From contig CAYTEZ010000003.1 in NCBI GenBank assembly GCA_964437025.1, forward strand, positions 1 to 43,842: a DNA stretch of 43,842 nucleotides, given 5' to 3'. Below the pieces are notes generated by a model. That model worked only from the letters and a program-made list of their open reading frames with translations. It did not search any database and was not told the origin of the DNA. Shown one piece after another: positions 10,601-32,844 of this stretch; the first letter of the stretch is position 1; the number at the start of each line of letters is the position of its first letter. The position numbers were made by a program, and so were the translations under genes. The DNA comes from an uncultured Gammaproteobacteria bacterium (GTDB taxonomy: Bacteria > Patescibacteriota > Patescibacteriia > Patescibacteriales > UBA12465).

Positions 10601-11531
10601 AACTCCTAAGAAGAAGGCTTTAATGTCTGAAGTTGAAGGAAAAATTAAAGTTGAATTTGGTCAGAAGACTATTAAGGATAAAGATGGAAAAGATATTTTG
10701 ATAAATAATCCTCAAGAAAAAATCTTAAAGATTATTTATAAGGGTAGAGATACTAAAAAATATTATTTCCGTGAATTATTAAATGAAATTAAGTTATCTG
10801 GTGAAAAACATGGAAAGAAAGATTTAGAACCAAAAATTAAAGTTAAAGAAGGAGAAGAAATTATTACGGGAACTGAACTTTATTCTATTGCTGGTAGATC
10901 AGTTAAGGCTGAGGTTGGTGGTAGCATCAAAATTTCAGATAAGTTTATTGCAGTTGCTTCTGAAGTTGATAAAGTACAAGAGTTCACTATCCCTAAAGGT
11001 TTAATGATTTGGGTTAAAGATGGAGATACTGTTAAACCAGGTGATCGTTTGACTGAAGGAAGTTTTGATCTTAAAGAATTATATCGTTTACGTGGTCAAC
11101 TTGAGACTCAAAAGTATATTATTAAAGAAATTCAATATGTATATTCTTCTCAGGGACAACCTTTAAATGATAAACATATCGAAATCATTGCTCGTCAAAT
11201 GTTCTCTCGTTATTTAGTTAAAGAAACTGGAGAAAGTGATTTATTGCCAGGAGAAACAGTTGAAGATGAGGTTTTGTATCAAGCTAATAAAGATTCTAAA
11301 AACAAAGCTAAGGCTGAAAAATTATTATTAGGTATTACCAAGACTTCACTTACCACTGATAGTTTCTTGTCAGCTGCCTCTTTCCAAGAGACACCTAGAG
11401 TTTTAATCGATGCAGCGCTTAGCGGAAAGATTGATTACTTAGAAGGTCTAAAAGAAAATGTTATCATTGGTTGTTTGATCCCAGCCGGTACTGGATATAA
11501 AGGAAAGAAAAAGAGAGAGATCTATAAATAA
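7602..11531 (+). CDS. rpoC: DNA-directed RNA polymerase beta' subunit
   Basis: Zn-finger [23 protein letters not shown], catalytic [12 protein letters not shown], and the trigger-loop/bridge-helix regions. 1309 aa. Confidence 0.98.
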
Positions 11532-11546
11532 TATTTATTCGTTTTA

Positions 11547-11575
11547 ATGAACCCCTGTTTCAGACAGGGGTTCAT
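11547..11575 (+). terminator. Hairpin after rpoC (12-bp stem, 5-nt loop)
   Basis: ATGAACCCCTGT-TTCAG-ACAGGGGTTCAT. No U-tract follows on the plus strand, so terminator function is uncertain. Confidence 0.5.
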
Positions 11576-11592
11576 GATAAAAAAATAAATCT

Positions 11593-12132
11593 ATGAAAAT
11601 AATTGTTGGGCTAGGTAATCCTGGTGAAAAATATCAAAAAACCAGACACAATGCTGGCTTTATGCTCCTTGATTTTTTAGCTGGAGCTGAGGCTTCTTGG
11701 AAACTAGAAAAAAAGTTTAATGCTTTAGTGTTTGAAAAAGGTGATTTAACTTTGATTAAGCCTTTAACTTTTATGAATAATTCAGGACTATCGGTTAGAG
11801 CCTTTATGGATTATTATAAGTTACTCCCTAAAACCATGGGCTTGTTTGCCAAGAAAGATTTAGACCTAAGTGAAATGCTAACAGTTGTCCATGATGATTT
11901 AGATATTGAATTTGGTAGAATAAAAACTTCAATTAATTCTTCTAGCGCTGGGCACAATGGAGTTCAATCAGTTATTAACCATTTAAAGACTAAGAATTTT
12001 AAAAGACTTAGAATCGGAATTAACAATGAGTTTAAAAATAATATTCCAGGAGACAAGTTTGTTTTGCAAAACTTCTCAACCACAGAGTTAGAAAGACTAG
12101 AAAATATTTTTCAGGAACTTAAAGAGATATAA
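11593..12132 (+). CDS. pth: Peptidyl-tRNA hydrolase
   Basis: MKIIVGLGNPGEKYQKTRHNAGF and HDDLD motifs. 179 aa. Confidence 0.95.
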   Translation: MKIIVGLGNPGEKYQKTRHNAGFMLLDFLAGAEASWKLEKKFNALVFEKGDLTLIKPLTFMNNSGLSVRAFMDYYKLLPKTMGLFAKKDLDLSEMLTVVHDDLDIEFGRIKTSINSSSAGHNGVQSVINHLKTKNFKRLRIGINNEFKNNIPGDKFVLQNFSTTELERLENIFQELKEI

Positions 12133-12147
12133 TATATATAGATAGAT

Positions 12148-12186
12148 AAAAAAAGACCTAGTATTAATACTAGGTCTTTTTCTTTT
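12148..12186. terminator. Bidirectional intrinsic terminator (pth on plus; candidate ncRNA-A on minus)
   Basis: AAAAAAAGACCTAGTA-TTAA-TACTAGGTCTTTTTCTTTT: perfect stem with an A-run before it and a T-run after it. Confidence 0.85.
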
Positions 12187-12339
12187 AAATAATAGTTGTG
12201 GAAAAAACTCGGAAGAGTTTTAAAATTTAAAAATCAGAGAGACCTAACCAGGGCAAAAAAGGGAGTCCCCTATTATGTTTCGATTTTTATCTTAAAACCC
12301 TTATTTCCGAGCTACATCCTCAACCACTATTTTTAAAGT
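12148..12339 (-). ncRNA. Candidate structured ncRNA-A (~190 nt, rod-like), family unknown
   Basis: Its own promoter lies at 12346-12374 (minus). Four nested long-range helices: 12192-12201/12324-12330, 12206-12214/12305-12313, 12217-12223/12292-12298 and 12228-12235/12282-12289. It ends at the bidirectional terminator. No ORF. Confidence 0.5.
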
Positions 12340-12345
12340 GAAATT

Positions 12346-12374
12346 ATTATAGCATATATAATAAAAAGCGTCAA
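12346..12374 (-). promoter_or_regulatory. Near-consensus sigma70 promoter on the minus strand (drives ncRNA-A)
   Basis: Minus strand reads TTGACG (12374-12369), exactly 17 nt, TATAAT (12351-12346). Confidence 0.65.
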
Positions 12375-12445
12375 GAGGTGCAAATTAATCTAGTTTTTAT
12401 AAATACTTTAGGATAGCTTTAAATAATCTATGCTAGTATTTCTTT

Positions 12446-13375
12446 ATGTTTAACGAAAAGAAATACGCCCTAGCTTTTAATTGTTTAATCAGTTTTGATT
12501 ATCAATTGTATAAAAGATTAATGGATAAATTTGGTAGCTTACAAAAAGCTTTTTATAGCCCTTATTTAGAATTGCTTTCAGTTTTTAAGAGCGAAAAAAA
12601 ATTATCATTATTTATACGGGGGAGAAAATCTTTTTCTTTCACTGATATTTTTTTTAAGTTAGAAAAGGAGGGAATTAACCTTTGTTTTATTCAAGATGAT
12701 AATTATCCAAAGTATTTAAAGAGTATATATAATCCACCACCTTTGTTTTATTACAAAGGTAATTTGAATATTAATTGGAGTAATTCTTTGGCGGTTGTTG
12801 GGGCGAGAAGGTTTAGCGATTATGGTCAAAAGATTGTTGAAAAAATAATCCCTGGTGTTAGTTGCGAGGGTGTAGCAATTGTTTCAGGACTAGCTTTAGG
12901 GATTGATTCCCTGTCTCATCGAGCCACTCTTAAATCTAGAGGTAAAACGGTTGGGGTTTTGGGTTCTGGCTTAGATCAATCTTCAATTTATCCTTATAGT
13001 AATAAATATCTAGCTTTAGAAATTATAGCTAGTGGTGGTCTGCTTATTTCGGAGTTTCCTTTAGGCACTAAACCTTTGGCCCATCACTTCCCGCAAAGAA
13101 ATAGAATTATAGCTGGGCTTACTCCGGTTACTTTGGTGGTTGAGGCTGGTATAAAATCAGGTTCTTTGATTACAGCCAAAAGTGCTCTAGAAGAAGGAAG
13201 AGAGGTTTGCTCTATTCCAGGGGATATCTTTTGTGATAATTTAGCGGGTAATAATTTTTTATTACAAAATGGGGCGGGGCTAATTTTAGAAATAGCTGAT
13301 ATTTTAGCTTATTTTGCCATTACACCAAGAAATACTAGAGATAGAGAAGAAAACCTCAAAAATAGCCATTTTTAG
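12446..13375 (+). CDS. dprA: DNA processing protein DprA (Smf)
   Basis: Rossmann-like DprA core AVVGARRFSDYGQ, SGLALGIDSLSHRA, FPQRNRIIAGL. The adjacent topA matches the common dprA-topA pairing. Confidence 0.9.
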   Translation: MFNEKKYALAFNCLISFDYQLYKRLMDKFGSLQKAFYSPYLELLSVFKSEKKLSLFIRGRKSFSFTDIFFKLEKEGINLCFIQDDNYPKYLKSIYNPPPLFYYKGNLNINWSNSLAVVGARRFSDYGQKIVEKIIPGVSCEGVAIVSGLALGIDSLSHRATLKSRGKTVGVLGSGLDQSSIYPYSNKYLALEIIASGGLLISEFPLGTKPLAHHFPQRNRIIAGLTPVTLVVEAGIKSGSLITAKSALEEGREVCSIPGDIFCDNLAGNNFLLQNGAGLILEIADILAYFAITPRNTRDREENLKNSHF

Positions 13376-27439: not shown

Positions 27440-29314
27440 ATGTCTAAAGAGACTTTAAAAAAAATATCATTTTTCTTCTTGTATGCAATTTTAGTGTTGC
27501 TTATTTTTTTATTATTAAGCTACTTTATTCTAGAAGAAAGATTTAATAATCAAATTTATCCTAATGTTTATTTTGCTGGTATTGATTTATCAGGACTTAG
27601 TCGAGATGAAGCTCAGAGTTTAATTGAAAAAAAAGTTACTCAATTTGAAGATCAGGGGGTTAAAATTAAACTAAAAAATCAGGAAATGACTTGGTATAAT
27701 TTAGCTTCGTCTTTTGACCCTGATTTAGCTTTAACTCCAATTTTATACAATATTTCAACCTCTTCTAATAAAGCTTATTTAATAGCTAGAGATGGTACTT
27801 GGTTGGAGATTTTTCATAAGATTAGAACCTTATTCTTTGACACTAAATTAACCTTAGATTTTTCTTCTGAACCAGAAGAATTAAAGAAAATGGTTCAAGA
27901 AAATTTTTCTAATTTAGAGAACCCGGCTCAAAATGCCGCTTTAATATTTAAGGAAGAATATGTTAACGGTGAAAAGAAAATAGTATTTTCTACTACTAGT
28001 GAAAATGATGGTTATGAAATAGATTATAATTTGTTTTTGTCAGATTTTTCTAATCGTCTTTCTAATTTAGATAACTCTGATATTAATTTAAAACTCATTG
28101 AAACTAAGGCTAAAATACATTTATCCGATATTTCGTCTTTTCCTAAACAAGCAGAAGAAATAGCTAATTTAGCACCCTTTGAATTAAAAAGCATAGAAAA
28201 GAAAAAAACTTTTAGTGTTAGTCGTTTAGAATTTGCTTCTTGGCTGAAAGTTTCTGATGATCTTAAATTAATTTTAGACCGAGAAAAGGTAGGAAAGTTT
28301 TTTGATGAACAGGTTGCTAATCAAATTAATCAAGAGGCCTTGCAACCTAAAATCGAATTAAATGGTGACAGGGTTTCAGTTTTTGAACCAGGCCGTGATG
28401 GTTTAATTTTAGATTACGAAGCTAGTATCTTAGCAATGGAAGAAGCTATAGCTAAAAAAGATTTAAGTAATATTTCTTTAGTAACCAAGGTGGAGGAAAT
28501 TGAAAAAATTAGTCAGACTAATGATTTAGGAATTTTTGAGCTTATAGGTACCGGTCATTCTAACTTTGCCGGTTCACCAGCTAATCGTCGGCACAATATT
28601 AAGACTGGGGCTAGTAAATTACATGGTTTAATTATAAAACCAGGGGAAGAGTTTTCGTTAGTTGGGGCTTTAGGAGAGGTAGATGGTAGTACTGGTTATT
28701 TACAAGAGTTAGTTATAAAAGATAATAAGACTATACCAGAATATGGCGGTGGCTTATGCCAAATTGCAACCACTATGTTTAGAGCAGCACTAGGTACAGG
28801 ACTTCCAATTACTGAGAGAAGAAATCATTCTTATCGAGTTTCTTATTACGAACCAGCTGGTACTGACGCCACCATTTATACTCCACGACCAGATTTAAAA
28901 TTTAGAAATGATACTGGTAATAATATTTTAATTCAAGCTCGTTTTGAAGGAGCTAATGATGTTTATTTTGATTTTTGGGGTAAGTCTGATGGCCGAACAG
29001 CCACCACCACTTATCCAGTTATATATAATATTGTGAAACCAGGACCAACTCAAATTATTGAAACCACTGATTTAAAACCGGGCGAAAAAAAATGCACCGA
29101 AAAGGCGCACGCTGGAGCTGATGCTTATTTTGACTATACCGTTATCTATAATCAAGGAAAAGAAAATGAAAATAAAGTTGAAACCAGATTTTCTTCTAAA
29201 TATGTTCCTTGGAGAGAAGTTTGTTTAGTTGGCGTTGAACCGAAAACAGAAACTGCTTCTTCAACCGCTACTTCAACTGAGAGTATTTCAACTAGTACTG
29301 ATGTGTTAAATTAA
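27440..29314 (+). CDS. VanW family protein, membrane anchored
   Basis: N-terminal TM helix and C-terminal VanW core GGGLCQIATTMFRAALGTGLPITERRNHSYRVSYYEPAGTDATIY. S/T-rich tail. Confidence 0.85.
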   Translation: MSKETLKKISFFFLYAILVLLIFLLLSYFILEERFNNQIYPNVYFAGIDLSGLSRDEAQSLIEKKVTQFEDQGVKIKLKNQEMTWYNLASSFDPDLALTPILYNISTSSNKAYLIARDGTWLEIFHKIRTLFFDTKLTLDFSSEPEELKKMVQENFSNLENPAQNAALIFKEEYVNGEKKIVFSTTSENDGYEIDYNLFLSDFSNRLSNLDNSDINLKLIETKAKIHLSDISSFPKQAEEIANLAPFELKSIEKKKTFSVSRLEFASWLKVSDDLKLILDREKVGKFFDEQVANQINQEALQPKIELNGDRVSVFEPGRDGLILDYEASILAMEEAIAKKDLSNISLVTKVEEIEKISQTNDLGIFELIGTGHSNFAGSPANRRHNIKTGASKLHGLIIKPGEEFSLVGALGEVDGSTGYLQELVIKDNKTIPEYGGGLCQIATTMFRAALGTGLPITERRNHSYRVSYYEPAGTDATIYTPRPDLKFRNDTGNNILIQARFEGANDVYFDFWGKSDGRTATTTYPVIYNIVKPGPTQIIETTDLKPGEKKCTEKAHAGADAYFDYTVIYNQGKENENKVETRFSSKYVPWREVCLVGVEPKTETASSTATSTESISTSTDVLN

Positions 29315-29327
29315 AAAAAGAGTAAAT

Positions 29328-29468
29328 AAAAAAACCGACTTAAACGGGATAGGCAAGAAAATCTCTTTTAGGAGCTTTAAAGCCTTAGCCTTAGAAACCC
29401 TGAAAGAAAATCCCATGCTTGTCGTGCCTGGCCCGTTTAAATCGGTTTTTATTTTTTCAAAAGACAAC
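29328..29468 (-). ncRNA. Candidate structured ncRNA-B (~140 nt long hairpin), family unknown
   Basis: Promoter at 29474-29502 (minus). A 17-bp closing helix (29332-29348 with 29432-29448) encloses about 83 nt, followed by a second helix AGGCA/TGCCT. A-run and T-run flank it. It could instead be an oversized bidirectional terminator. Confidence 0.4.
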
Positions 29469-29473
29469 TTAAT

Positions 29474-29502
29474 ATTCTATCACACAAACAAAAAAAAGTC
29501 AA
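29474..29502 (-). promoter_or_regulatory. Extended -10 promoter on the minus strand (drives ncRNA-B)
   Basis: Minus strand reads TTGACT (29502-29497), 17 nt ending in TGa, TAGAAT (29479-29474). Confidence 0.6.
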
Positions 29503-29530
29503 TACCTAAAGGTGACTTCTTTTTTTTGAC

Positions 29531-29557
29531 AAAAACCCCTATAAATAGGGGGTTTTC
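29531..29557. terminator. tsaD terminator hairpin (C-tract/G-tract palindrome)
   Basis: AAAAACCCCTATAAATAGGGGGTTTTC; on the minus strand the stem is followed by TTTTTG. Confidence 0.7.
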
Positions 29558-29563
29558 TTGACT

Positions 29564-30634
29564 TTATTTTAGTTCTAGGTTGGAGTCTATTTTTAGATTT
29601 TTATAATTTTTAATATTTTTTTTGTTTTTTAGCAAGTGAAAAATACCGTTTAAAGCTATCATAGTGGCGTTATCACCGGAGTATTTTAGAGGTGGAGAAA
29701 CAAATTTTATCTTCTTTAAGTTAATATCGTTTTTTATTTTTTCAATAAACGTTTTTTTAAGTTCTGAGTTAGCTGAAACGCCACCAACTAACATGATAGT
29801 TTTAACTGGATATTTTTTTATAGCTTTCAAAGTTTTTCCGACCAAAACATCAATAGTTGCCTTTTGAAAAGAATAACAATATTGTGGAATTTTATCTTTC
29901 CAATTTTTATCTTTTCTTAGTTGGTATAATAAGGCGGTTTTTAATCCAGAAAAAGAAAAATCAAAATTATTTAAATTGAGCATCGGACGAGGTAGGTCTA
30001 TTTCTTCTAGGTTATTATTCTTTTCAATATATTCCTTAGCTAATTTTCCAATTATTGGTCCACCAGGATAGCCTAAATCCATCATTTTAGCTGCTTTGTC
30101 AAAAGCTTCTCCAGCAGCATCATCCAGTGTTTTGCCAATAATTTTGTATTTCAAATGATTATCCATTATAGCTAAAATATTATGACCGCCAGAAACGGTT
30201 AAAATTAAAGCTGGAAAATTAATCTTTTTTTTGTTTTCTAAAAAAGCAGAATAGATATGACCTTCAATGTGGTTAGTGGCAATTAAAGGAATGTTGTGCG
30301 CAAAAGATAACGCTTTGGCGGTTTCGCTAGCACTTATCAAAGAGGTAATTAATCCAGGGCCAGAGGTAACAGCAATAGCTGAGAGTTGTTTTAACTCAAT
30401 ATTAGCTTGACGTAAAGCTTGATCAATTACTGGTAAAATAGTTATAACATGTTCTCTAGCAGCTATCTCTGGCACAACTCCACCATATTGTTTGTGAATA
30501 TCAACCTGAGAAGAAACAATGCTAGATAGAACTTTAAAATTAGCTTGTTTGTCAAATTGAAGAACGGCTGCGGCGCTTTCATCGCAACTGCTTTCTAAGC
30601 CTAAAATATATTGTTTTTTTTGCTTTTTGATCAT
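29564..30634 (-). CDS. tsaD: tRNA N6-adenosine threonylcarbamoyltransferase TsaD (Kae1/Gcp)
   Basis: ILGLESSCDESAAAV, HIEGHIYSAF and GGVSANSEL motifs. 356 aa. Confidence 0.93.
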   Translation of the reverse strand: MIKKQKKQYILGLESSCDESAAAVLQFDKQANFKVLSSIVSSQVDIHKQYGGVVPEIAAREHVITILPVIDQALRQANIELKQLSAIAVTSGPGLITSLISASETAKALSFAHNIPLIATNHIEGHIYSAFLENKKKINFPALILTVSGGHNILAIMDNHLKYKIIGKTLDDAAGEAFDKAAKMMDLGYPGGPIIGKLAKEYIEKNNNLEEIDLPRPMLNLNNFDFSFSGLKTALLYQLRKDKNWKDKIPQYCYSFQKATIDVLVGKTLKAIKKYPVKTIMLVGGVSANSELKKTFIEKIKNDINLKKIKFVSPPLKYSGDNATMIALNGIFHLLKNKKNIKNYKNLKIDSNLELK

Positions 30635-30677
30635 ATTTTCTATTATTATAATTTTAGTTTAGCGTATTGTTCCCTTA

Positions 30678-30706
30678 TTGACAAGTTTAGAAAATAAATA
30701 TAATAT
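30678..30706 (+). promoter_or_regulatory. tRNA-Glu promoter
   Basis: TTGACA (30678-30683), 17 nt, TAATAT (30701-30706), about 40 nt upstream of the tRNA. Confidence 0.7.
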
Positions 30707-30745
30707 ATTATTGCTTTCAAAAAAGCCTTTTTTATTTGGCTAGAA

Positions 30746-30817
30746 GGCCCCTTCGTCTAGTGGTTAGGACACCAGGTTTTCATCCTGACAACAGGGGTTC
30801 GATTCCCCTAGGGGTCA
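30746..30817 (+). tRNA. tRNA-Glu(UUC), no encoded CCA
   Basis: Acceptor GGCCCCT/AGGGGTC, D arm GTCT..GGAC, anticodon loop TTTTCAT (anticodon TTC), T arm AGGGG-TTCGATT-CCCCT. Confidence 0.9.
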
Positions 30818-30822
30818 CACTG

Positions 30823-30850
30823 CAGGTTTTCGAGCCTGTTTTTGTTTTTT
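30823..30850 (+). terminator. Intrinsic terminator after tRNA-Glu (UUCG tetraloop)
   Basis: CAGGTT-TTCG-AGCCTG followed by TTTTTGTTTTTT. Confidence 0.8.
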
Positions 30851-30901
30851 AAAATTTAATATATAATATAGTAGTATAATTAATCATTAAATAAAAACAA
30901 T

Positions 30902-31498
30902 ATGTTTGGTGAAAATTTTAAATCAATGTTGGGGATTAAAAATAATTCTCACGAAGAAGAACTACCTAAAGGGTCACAACAGAATCCTTACTCCCAAGCA
31001 GAATTCAATTCTCTAGCAAAAGAAAGAATGAGAAAAGAACAATTAGTGCATTTTGATGGTTATGTTAATGATACTACTAGTCCTAAAAATCCCAATGTTA
31101 GATATCTAAACTTTGTGGAAAAGGACAGCAATTTTTATACCGTCAATTTATCTCCTTCACAGAAAAGAACTTATACTCGTTTGAATACAATAAAAAATGA
31201 AGATAATTCTTTTTCGAATAATGTGTCCGTTCTGGTAAAGGATGGTGGCATAATGAAAAAAATGACAATTAGAATAGGGTATGAGTTACCATTGTCAATC
31301 AGAAAAGAAATAGTTGATACTGTTTATAGAAAAATAAATAGTGAAGATTTTGCTTCTAATCGAACCAAATGGAGTGAGGAAGCAAAGAAAATCAAAGAAG
31401 AAGAATGTCGCAAAGATCTTCTTTGGACAGTTGCTGGAATTGTGCGGAAAAATATTGAAGACAGTGAAGATGATTCGCTGGACATTCAAATACTATAA
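30902..31498 (+). CDS. Orphan hypothetical protein (198 aa)
   Basis: Clean ORF with coding-like composition and its own terminator. I recognise no motif. Confidence 0.6.
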   Translation: MFGENFKSMLGIKNNSHEEELPKGSQQNPYSQAEFNSLAKERMRKEQLVHFDGYVNDTTSPKNPNVRYLNFVEKDSNFYTVNLSPSQKRTYTRLNTIKNEDNSFSNNVSVLVKDGGIMKKMTIRIGYELPLSIRKEIVDTVYRKINSEDFASNRTKWSEEAKKIKEEECRKDLLWTVAGIVRKNIEDSEDDSLDIQIL

Positions 31499-31506
31499 TA
31501 AGTCTA

Positions 31507-31537
31507 AGAAGTCGTTAAATAACGGCTTCTTTTTTTA
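31507..31537 (+). terminator. Intrinsic terminator of the 198-aa gene
   Basis: AGAAGTCGTT-AAAT-AACGGCTTCT followed by TTTTTTT. Confidence 0.8.
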
Positions 31538-31540
31538 TAT

Positions 31541-31747
31541 AAAAAAATGGAGCTAGGTCGTGGTCTAGCTCCAGGTATTAATTGTGCCAATTTTTAAATC
31601 TAGAGCCGTTTTTAGATTTAAGGATATTGGCTAGATTATTGAATCCTCCTTTCGGTTAGTTTTTTCAAGGCGGCTGGAATACCACGGGCACCATTTTCTT
31701 CCTAGATAGCAGAAGTTTTATTCGGCGCGCGTACACGTAACTTATAC
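31541..31747 (-). ncRNA. Candidate ncRNA-C (~205 nt, GC-enriched) or small-peptide mRNA, family unknown
   Basis: Perfect promoter at 31752-31780 (minus). Terminator GGAGCTAG-loop-CTAGCTCC (31572-31549) plus a U-run only on the minus strand. No ORF of 60 aa or more. Internal long-range complementarity. Confidence 0.55.
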
Positions 31748-31751
31748 TTAT

Positions 31752-31780
31752 ATTATAACTCTGTTTTTTTTGATTGTCAA
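31752..31780 (-). promoter_or_regulatory. Perfect consensus sigma70 promoter with no protein gene downstream
   Basis: Minus strand reads TTGACA (31780-31775), 17 nt, TATAAT (31757-31752). Starts 3 nt after the ychF stop codon. Confidence 0.75.
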
Positions 31781-31782
31781 AA

Positions 31783-32844
31783 TTATTTTCCAATTAAAAA
31801 ATTACAGATATCACCATCACGTACAACATAATCTTTTCCTTCAGTTCTAAGTAATCCTAACTCTTTAGCTTTAACTTCTGATCCAACTTCAATAAACTTT
31901 TCCCAGTTAATAACCTCGGCTCTAATAAAGCCTTTTTCAAAATCAGTATGAATTTCTCCGGCGGCTTGTGGGGCTTTGCTGCCTTTTTTTATAGTCCAAG
32001 CTCGAGTTTCATCTTTTCCGGTAGTGAAGAAAGTTTCTAGACCTAGTAGTTTGTATGAGGAATAAATTAATTTGTCTAAACCGCTTTTATCAATGCCTAA
32101 TTCCTGTAGATATTCTTGTTGTTCTTCTTCAGGTAGTTTAGAAATTTCTTCTTCCATCTTTACATTGATTCTCACAATTTCACCATCCCAATTAAAATCA
32201 GTGCTAGCACTGGTGTCATCTGAATTTAAGGCATAAATGATTGGTTTAATTGTTAAAAGACTTAAGCTCTTAACAAAAGCTTGATCTTCGTCTTTTACAA
32301 CAAATTTTCTAGCACCTTGCCCACTTTCTAATAGTTTTAATATTTCTTCTAAAATTTCTTTTTGTTTGATAGCTTCTTTGGAATTACTCTTGGCTTCTTT
32401 GATAACTTTCTCTAATCTTTTTTCAACTGTTTTTAAATCAGCAAAAATTAATTCCATGTTAATTGTTTCTTGATCACTCTTGGGATCAACTTGACCCTCA
32501 ACGTGAATAACATTTTCATCTTTAAAATCTCGAATTACTTCGCAGATAGCATCACATTCTCTAATGTGTGATAAAAATTGGTTACCCAAACCTTCACCTT
32601 TGTGAGCGCCTTTAACTAATCCGGCAATATCGGTAAATTCAATAAAGGCCGGAATAATTTTAGCTGGTTGTGATATAGCTGCGATTTTATCTAAACGAGA
32701 ATCAGGAACTTTAACTACTCCAACATTGGGATCAATAGTACAAAAAGGGTAGTTAGCGGCCTCTACTTGTTTATTTGTTAGAACATTAAAAAGAGTTGAT
32801 TTTCCAACATTAGGTAAACCGACAATTCCAATTGATAATGACAT
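31783..32844 (-). CDS. ychF: Ribosome-binding ATPase YchF
   Basis: IGIVGLPNVGKSTLFN P-loop, NYPFCTIDPN, and C-terminal TGS-like VRDGDICNF. Confidence 0.95.
   Translation of the reverse strand: MSLSIGIVGLPNVGKSTLFNVLTNKQVEAANYPFCTIDPNVGVVKVPDSRLDKIAAISQPAKIIPAFIEFTDIAGLVKGAHKGEGLGNQFLSHIRECDAICEVIRDFKDENVIHVEGQVDPKSDQETINMELIFADLKTVEKRLEKVIKEAKSNSKEAIKQKEILEEILKLLESGQGARKFVVKDEDQAFVKSLSLLTIKPIIYALNSDDTSASTDFNWDGEIVRINVKMEEEISKLPEEEQQEYLQELGIDKSGLDKLIYSSYKLLGLETFFTTGKDETRAWTIKKGSKAPQAAGEIHTDFEKGFIRAEVINWEKFIEVGSEVKAKELGLLRTEGKDYVVRDGDICNFLIGK

Follow-up and report, generated by a model that had tools for sequence, protein, structure and literature searches.

What is encoded in the 313 nucleotides (nt) that separate pth (11593-12132, Pfam Pept_tRNA_hydro) from dprA (12446-13375, Pfam DNA_processg_A) on contig CAYTEZ010000003.1? 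We analysed a 43,842-nt stretch of this contig (positions 1 to 43,842; assembly GCA_964437025.1; hereafter the window). Its host is a member of the Patescibacteria, and the relatives identified through its DprA carry names such as "Patescibacteria group bacterium" and "Candidatus Falkowbacteria". An earlier reading of the sequence (hereafter the original prediction) had proposed that the spacer holds an uncatalogued, independent, rod-shaped non-coding RNA (ncRNA) on the minus strand, and this is supported by the lack of a match in Rfam, by covariation in helices P1 and P2, by a conserved promoter and by a metatranscriptome contig. We are confident that the spacer RNA is a real, conserved, structured small RNA (sRNA) without an Rfam match. 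The fuller proposal, that this RNA gene acts in trans through an apical loop resembling the 16S rRNA anti-Shine-Dalgarno (anti-SD) sequence, we regard as evenly balanced. The predicted elements, with helices taken from the minimum free energy (MFE) fold, are:

12148-12340, minus strand: predicted RNA from end to end, about 155 nt for the rod alone and about 190 nt when the terminator hairpin is included
12369-12374, minus strand: -35 hexamer TTGACG, invariant in the close relatives L161-L165
12346-12354, minus strand: extended -10, TGC-TATAAT (TATAAT at 12351-12346), 17 nt after the -35
12333-12340, minus strand: predicted 5′ end and conserved leader CACUUUAA
12317-12332, minus strand: 5′ strand of helix P1, pairing with 12187-12202
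12306-12313, minus strand: 5′ strand of helix P2, AGCUCGGA, pairing with 12206-12213
12280-12301, minus strand: 5′ strand of helix P3, long and A/U-rich, pairing with 12214-12238
12242-12278, minus strand: apical hairpin, stem 12278-12267/12242-12253, 13-nt loop 12266-12254 (ACUCCCUUUUUUG)
12214-12238, minus strand: 3′ strand of P3, inside a 117-nt stretch without substitution relative to L161
12206-12213, minus strand: 3′ strand of P2
12187-12202, minus strand: 3′ strand of P1
about 12148-12183, minus strand: bidirectional intrinsic terminator, stem core GACCUAGUA/UACUAGGUC, with an A-run on one side and a U-run on the other, invariant in L161-L165

The promoter was found where it had been read by eye, with TTGACG, 17 nt and TATAAT on the minus strand (12374-12346). 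It scores 11/12 and carries an extended -10 TG, and no other site in 11500-13000 is as good. Relative to L161, five promoter positions differ, in the spacer and at one -10 base (the extended -10 of L161 reads TGA-TACAAT), leaving both hexamers in place, with TTGACG, the TG and a TAnnAT -10 intact. TTGACT or TTGATT occupies the -35 place in L166, L168, L169 and L171, and the distance from promoter to rod is constant in all homologues. From the distance to the -10 we infer a transcription start site (TSS) at about 12339-12340, at the head of a leader whose CACUUU is invariant in 5/5 aligned homologues.

The bidirectional terminator is likewise present, at 12150-12181, with a run of seven U on the minus strand. 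L168 and L169 lack a separate terminator: their rod is followed directly by a U-run (UUAUUUUUUAUUU) and acts as its own terminator. We also noted a strain variant in the terminator stem of the window (12156, A>G, run X3), which gives a G-U pair in plus-strand RNA and a C-A mismatch in minus-strand RNA. Only plus-strand RNA thus keeps the pair, as would fit a terminator that is used by pth as well. The RNA gene is convergent with pth and divergent from dprA. It had been described as antisense to both neighbours; it overlaps neither and hence is not antisense in the regulatory sense. The spacer has no meaningful open reading frame (ORF): none that starts with ATG exceeds 6 codons, and the sole ORF listed is a 46-codon TTG ORF on the plus strand (12196-12336). 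No ATG-started ORF in any of the homologous spacers is longer than 21 codons.

Folding of the minus-strand RNA (12340-12148) gave an MFE of -70.7 kcal/mol (z = -8.64), a value that none of 200 dinucleotide shuffles equalled, and the plus-strand fold is weaker (-53.5 kcal/mol, z = -6.14). The structure is an imperfect rod of about 150 nt, made of P1, P2 and P3, topped by the apical hairpin. All four nested helices of the original prediction are contained in it, the third and fourth merging into P3. The roughly 45-nt GC-richer apex that they were thought to close folds instead as the apical hairpin with its pyrimidine-rich loop of 13 nt. According to both the MFE and centroid folds, internal loops measure only 3-5 nt and the apical loop is the sole large unpaired element. 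The 3′ strand of P2 leads into a U-rich internal loop that is conserved (UUUUUU, covering 12203-12205 and extending further). In plus-strand RNA, seven of the minus-strand G-U pairs would turn into C-A mismatches; among them is G12312-U12207 in P2, the pair that had first been taken to favour the minus orientation.

Close relatives show that the RNA is under stronger constraint than the genes beside it. L161-L165 encode a DprA that is 87-88% identical to that of the window and keep the gene order rpoC-pth-spacer-dprA-topA. DNA identity between the window and L161 is 96.9% for the RNA region, compared with 89.6% for pth, 84.0% for dprA, 91.6% for rpoC and 90.6% for topA. This amounts to 6 changes in 193 nt where the flanking genes diverge by 10.2% (binomial P = 1.8e-4), and the 117-nt 3′ half (12148-12264) has none (P = 3e-6). 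The stem substitutions are all exchanges between G-U and A-U pairs: G12312-U to A-U, A12301-U to G-U and G12270-U to A-U in the close relatives, and G12325-U to A-U in strains of runs X1 and X3. Minus-strand pairing is preserved by each of them, and the plus strand is always left with C-A mismatches somewhere. As a side observation on the neighbouring gene, the DprA of this lineage (12446-13375) is a short form of 297-309 amino acids that matches PF02481 only, while most DprA relatives in Patescibacteria have 360-380 amino acids and additionally match a C-terminal winged-helix domain (PF17782).

Searches with the single window sequence (blastn and nhmmer against 160 loci) returned no homologue, and in the best DprA relative among GTDB representative genomes (57% identical) a pilin-like gene occupies the spacer instead. 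Homologues surfaced only after closer relatives had been fetched via DprA. In L166/L167/L174, L168 and L169, whose DprA is 61-66% identical, an RNA that is homologous along its whole length lies in the same place. An nhmmer profile of A3, the alignment of window-type rod RNAs made in this analysis, matched L161-L165 at E=1.4e-40, L168 at 1e-33, L169 at 2e-33, L166 at 1e-22 and L167 at 1e-10. The distant homologues have a TTGAnn-17-TATAAT promoter at equal distance from the rod, and they share the 5′ leader (CACUUUAA..AUAG), the 3′ end (GAGUUUUUUCC..CUAUUAUUU) and the order of the helices. About four related lineages make up the window-type sequence family so far.

The alignment of related pth-dprA spacers also provided a covariation check. 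Across P1 and P2, double changes occur in 9/25 pairs, as against 0-2 in controls with the partners slid, and the covariation score was reached by 0/500 shuffles. The paired fraction of the P1 and P2 cells is 94.4%, compared with 38-58% when the partners are slid. Taken singly, P1 has double-sided changes in 5/16 pairs, with 95% of its cells paired, and P2 has them in 4/9 aligned pairs. Eleven of the paired P1 and P2 cells are G-U, and this favours the minus strand. Covariation was counted for P1 and P2; in the MAFFT alignment, P3 and the apical stem of different lineages are shifted against each other. RNAalifold was also applied to the homologue alignment. A helix of comparable position to P3 is predicted in every homologue.

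Other occupants of the spacer were seen in some loci. In L001 (2489-2923) and L173 (82-522), pth and dprA are separated by a type IV pilin-like gene (PF07963, N_methyl) that is read in the same direction as its two neighbours. L081 and L082 (3538-3739, minus strand) encode the closest Pth (74%) and have no rod. Immediately before their terminator hairpin lies a short stretch, ACUUCCCUUGAAAAC, which could be a minimal form related to the loop motif, or simply a product of chance.

No known RNA family accounts for the spacer RNA. At gathering score, Rfam 15 identified only three tRNAs in the whole window. A permissive scan of the spacer (E≤10, 361 nt) gave weak, terminator-driven matches only and no 6S, signal recognition particle (SRP), transfer-messenger RNA (tmRNA), RNase P or riboswitch model, in agreement with the failure to recognize SRP RNA, RNase P, tmRNA or a riboswitch by eye. 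The gathering-score scan of 12 related loci, and permissive scans of L094 and of window positions 29300-31800, returned only tRNAs and terminator-driven noise. Bacterial SRP RNA (4.5S) was considered and rejected: there is no covariance model (CM) match, GNRA tetraloop or set of conserved domain IV loops, and the loop has 13 nt and is pyrimidine-rich. In the literature searched we found no description of this small RNA, nor of any regulatory RNA of Patescibacteria (Candidate Phyla Radiation).

The spacer RNA is probably expressed. In the wastewater metatranscriptome X24, one 169-nt contig corresponds to 12151-12319 from end to end (depth 11.2) and carries L161-type variants. No X24 contig covers the 3′ end of pth (12003-12136) or the dprA side (12338-13208). 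The contig fits a discrete transcript that ends at the terminator. A discrete minus-strand transcript had been suggested as a check on the RNA; the contig answers to the first part of that description and, carrying no strand, not to the second.

The apical loop is both conserved and exposed. Their apical stems are wholly different between lineages (AGGG/CCCU, ACAGG/CCUGA, CUUGAAG/CUUCAAG, ACGGU/ACCGG), and every homologue nevertheless presents a pyrimidine-rich loop of 11-14 nt. This loop is ACUCCCUUUUUUG in the window, AUUCCCUUUUUUG in L161, UUUUCCUUUUU in L166, UUAUUCCUUUUU in L174, UUUUUCCUCUUU in L168, UUCCUCCUUUUUU in L169 and UUAACCUCCUUUUU in L171. Those of L169 and L171 contain the 16S rRNA anti-SD core. 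The motif is CCUCCUU in relatives and, judging from the loop sequences, has drifted to CUCCCUUUUUU in the window lineage, where it takes the forms CUCCC or UCCUUUU in place of CCUCC. For the window motif CUCCC, no target was found in the window.

A wider set of loci was fetched from metagenomes through Pth (52-63% identical). The pth-dprA spacer of many Patescibacteria holds one or two rods of about 90-110 nt on the same strand, with a TTGAC-type promoter and an apical loop that always has CCUCCUU(G). Among 14 of these CCUCCUUG rods (alignment A1), compensatory changes affect 19/22 basal pairs. A CM built from them (R1) found members in 19 loci, several of them not used in building it, at 58-87 bits; the CCUCCUUG rods have no Rfam match. 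The window RNA has in common with them the locus, the strand, the TTGAC-type promoter and a rod with an apical hairpin, and differs in lacking the invariant CCUCCUU loop. R1 scores 13 bits on L169 and 8.9 bits on L171. The latter is intermediate, its promoter and leader being like those of L100 and its loop, UUAACCUCCUUUUU, like that of L169. By position, the window RNA is probably orthologous to these shorter CCUCCUUG rods. From locus, strand, promoter type, architecture and loop motif, we favour with moderate confidence a shared ancestry of the two groups.

Several observations were made on the surroundings of the CCUCCUUG rods. In L104 (3614-4447), L105 (1422-2348) and L123 (629-1226), tRNA genes follow the rods on the same strand at a distance of 9-23 nt, which suggests that the rods are stable RNAs released from tRNA operon transcripts. 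ARAGORN labels the L105 gene at 1888-1959 "tRNA-???", with a 2-nt anticodon, and in L097 a tRNA-like sequence containing a long insert goes uncalled by ARAGORN. L084 (3571-3900, minus strand) has a 109-codon ORF without a Pfam match and with a strong Shine-Dalgarno (SD) sequence, CACAGGAGGAUUGGUAUG, directly downstream of two CCUCCUUG rods on the same strand.

How might such an RNA act? We propose that it is an independent stable-sRNA gene, which would be transcribed on the minus strand from a strong sigma-70-type promoter and would end at the bidirectional terminator. The rod (P1, P2 and P3) would serve as a scaffold that holds up the apical hairpin, and the exposed loop, in its resemblance to the 3′ tail of 16S rRNA, would be the working part. 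Most likely the RNA would act in trans, its loop pairing with purine-rich (GGAG/AAAGG-type) sequences in a few RNAs. In cuckoo/CcsR and RsaE/RNAIII-type sRNAs, C/U-rich hairpin loops pair with purine-rich ribosome-binding sites (PMC4615179), and since anti-SD-like loops of this kind work there, a trans-acting loop is favoured here. That the loop pairs with purine-rich RNA is put forward tentatively, with the balance somewhat against it. We infer the mode of action as a whole, as we do the exact ends of the RNA, the strand of the RNA-seq signal and the link between the two groups of rods.

A number of results weigh against this proposal. The covariation rests on about four independent lineages, and several close relatives (L081-L083, L156, L170, L172, L001, L173) have no such RNA in the spacer. 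The X24 evidence consists of assembled contigs without strand and with crude depth, for which DNA carry-over is possible, and X5, from the same study, has no contig over most of the RNA and is uninformative. R1 gave no match to the window RNA at E≤10 with default filters (with filters off, 8.2 bits at 12214-12301), and nhmmer profiles in either direction do not connect the window-type RNAs with the CCUCCUUG rods. The window loop has CUCCC, not the canonical CCUCC, and CCTCC occurs nowhere in the spacer. As for targets, 0/32 window ORFs of at least 100 codons have GGAG, GAGG or AGGA at -20 to -4, and the complement of the loop (AAAAGGGAG, at most one mismatch) has 21 matches in the window where 21.2 are expected, none of them at a start codon. 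The regions upstream of window ORFs are A/T-rich, and related loci are similarly SD-poor. Because the host does not use SD sequences, we reject a general blocking of SD sites or an SD sponge; any targets would be few and special.

The main rival reading is that the loop mimics the 3′ tail of 16S rRNA, which is single-stranded, and binds a protein that normally recognises this tail; the RNA would titrate or deliver that factor and not pair with mRNA. Candidate partners are bS21, the bS21/bS18/bS6 pocket, Era, KsgA and YbeY. It speaks for such a decoy that the wider family carries the anti-SD core itself, CCUCCUU, in its loop, where it is invariant while the stems vary freely, and the invariant 3′ half of the window rod suggests sequence-specific contacts beyond base pairing. 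The clade is nearly free of SD sequences, yet rpsU of L136, the only relative with rpsU at hand, has a strong SD, AAAGGAGGU. Such a pattern is the signature of anti-SD sequestration and bS21 autoregulation in Bacteroidia, a group in which bS21/bS18/bS6 sequester the anti-SD and rpsU is the single gene with a strong SD (PMC7797042, PMC9976891). The CCUCCU anti-SD mimic of OLE RNA binds bS21 (PMC12054373), but that mimic is a duplex, whereas the motif here lies in a loop. Moreover, the window loop has drifted to CUCCCUUUUUU (UUCCCUUUUUU in L161, UUUUCCUUUUU in L166) and is ill-suited to mimicking a universally conserved rRNA tail. On this evidence we consider a protein decoy unlikely.

The bS21 gene of L136 lies at 93-359 on the minus strand (Pfam Ribosomal_S21, 32.1 bits), with its strong SD in an otherwise SD-poor relative, and represents one locus only. 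A bolder proposal is that the rods mimic the 16S 3′ tail as free-standing RNAs and act in an anti-SD/bS21 circuit, in a bacterial radiation with ribosomes that, as in Bacteroidia, ignore SD sequences; we offer it as a speculation with slim prospects. If it were true, the rods would compete with the ribosomal anti-SD for the strong SD of rpsU mRNA, or bind bS21, and would set the fraction of "SD-seeing" ribosomes, and the drift of the loop from CCUCC to CUCCC/UCCUUUUU would track a change in the circuit.

The spacer might instead hold a cis element, that is, an insulator or terminator, an antisense regulator of pth formed by read-through, or the relic of a miniature inverted-repeat transposable element (MITE). 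In favour of this, the terminator works in both directions and serves pth as well, the 12156 variant keeps its plus-strand pair only, and the rod, an imperfect inverted repeat, can fold from either strand. Set against this are the dedicated near-consensus promoter at a fixed distance in every homologue, the strand-specific G-U pairs and substitution pattern, a conserved unpaired loop that has no role in a terminator, and an X24 contig that stops at the terminator without entering pth. A MITE or dispersed palindromic repeat was rejected, as the element occurs once in the window, never more than once in any of the loci compared, and is confined to one locus: among the 174 loci, copies were seen in orthologous spacers only. 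We judge a cis element very improbable.

6S RNA binds the sigma-70 holoenzyme and templates product RNA (pRNA). The original prediction had left a 6S-like RNA, which would mimic an open promoter and sequester RNA polymerase holoenzyme, as an option, and the spacer RNA would fit one in length (about 155-190 nt), in its rod-like form and in having a strong promoter of the housekeeping type. However, neither RF00013 nor a related model matches at E≤10 in the 361-nt search, the internal loops of 3-5 nt leave no large central bubble between a closing and a terminal stem, and related rods of other lineages are only about 90-110 nt and stand in tandem. We therefore reject 6S RNA, as a reading with hardly any probability left. 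Weakest of all, to the point of being negligible, is the idea that the transcript encodes a very small protein, either as its sole function or beside a role as RNA, for which the plus-strand TTG ORF could be cited: besides the scarcity of ATG-started ORFs given above, the longest ORFs differ in strand, frame and sequence between homologues, and homologues of 145, 158 and 159 nt differ in length by amounts that are not multiples of three.

The window contains one further candidate ncRNA and one further rod-like fold. The candidate ncRNA, at 31535-31779, has a minus-strand TTGACA-17-TATAAT promoter (about 31779-31751), followed by about 200 nt and a terminator hairpin (GGAGCUAGACC..GGUCUAGCUCC) with a U-run, and has no Rfam match. 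It carries the only intergenic GGAGG/CCUCC of the window, which reads AAAGGAGGAUU on the minus and AAUCCUCCUUUCGG on the plus strand. Pairing of the pth-dprA RNA loop with this GGAGG-containing candidate at 31.6 kb was no better than that of shuffled loops. The rod-like fold (AAAAACCGACUUAAACGGG...CCCGUUUAAAUCGGUUUUU) lies at 29325-29455 in a 249-nt spacer (29315-29563), with z of about -6.4 and -6.9 on the two strands and no Rfam match.

The conserved single-stranded motif of the rod family points towards translation. With the anti-SD core in hosts that do not use SD sequences, the family would offer a direct handle on the organisation and regulation of translation initiation in these reduced genomes, and it would allow the "blind ribosome / bS21" model to be tested independently in organisms other than Bacteroidia. 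Even if the RNA is an ordinary base-pairing sRNA, it would still be a new Rfam family and an annotation marker for the pth-dprA locus.

Among known systems, two resemble the window RNA and its relatives in general form. 6S RNA is like the window RNA in size range, rod shape and strong constitutive-type promoter, and unlike it in its central bubble and CM. 4.5S/SRP RNA is a stable rod of about 100 nt, and the related rods upstream of tRNA genes likewise resemble stable RNAs; in contrast to 4.5S/SRP RNA, the rods have no GNRA tetraloop, conserved symmetric/asymmetric loops or CM match, and they occur as tandem copies in one spacer. OLE RNA offers a likeness in its P6, where an ncRNA carries the 16S anti-SD sequence CCUCCU and is recognised by bS21 (PMC12054373), resembling the relatives' rods with CCUCCU. 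However, OLE is a multi-domain RNA of Bacillota of about 600 nt with an SD-ASD-like (SD-anti-SD) duplex, whereas here the motif lies in the loop of a simple rod and binding is putative; the exact CCUCCU is present in the relatives' rods and absent from the window RNA.

The sRNAs with anti-SD-like loops come nearer. RsaE/RoxS and RNAIII-type sRNAs of Firmicutes expose C/U-rich (UCCC) loops that seed pairing with G-rich ribosome-binding sites (PMC4615179); the window RNA differs from them in having no Rfam match, another architecture and no detectable targets of the ribosome-binding-site type in the window. The cuckoo RNAs of Alphaproteobacteria (RSs0680/CcsR, SmelC397/C14) combine variable stems with a conserved anti-SD-like loop, CCUCCUCCC (PMC4615179), a loop principle that the window-type rods may share: their pyrimidine-rich loop is conserved over differing stems, but the motif of the window is CUCCC in place of CCUCC and no target for it was found there. 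They form 2-4 adjacent hairpins of 24-50 nt in conserved neighbourhoods (PMC4615179), and the CCUCCUUG rods, often two in tandem, are closely alike. Unlike the cuckoo RNAs, to which they have no sequence or CM relationship, the rods described here belong to Patescibacteria and measure 90-150 nt. The window RNA is a single module of about 150 nt with the drifted motif CUCCCUUUUUU and a loop without CCUCCUCCC, and its hosts are essentially without SD-led genes. In design, then, it is closest to the sRNAs with anti-SD loops, and it stands in a lineage in which SD-led initiation is essentially absent.

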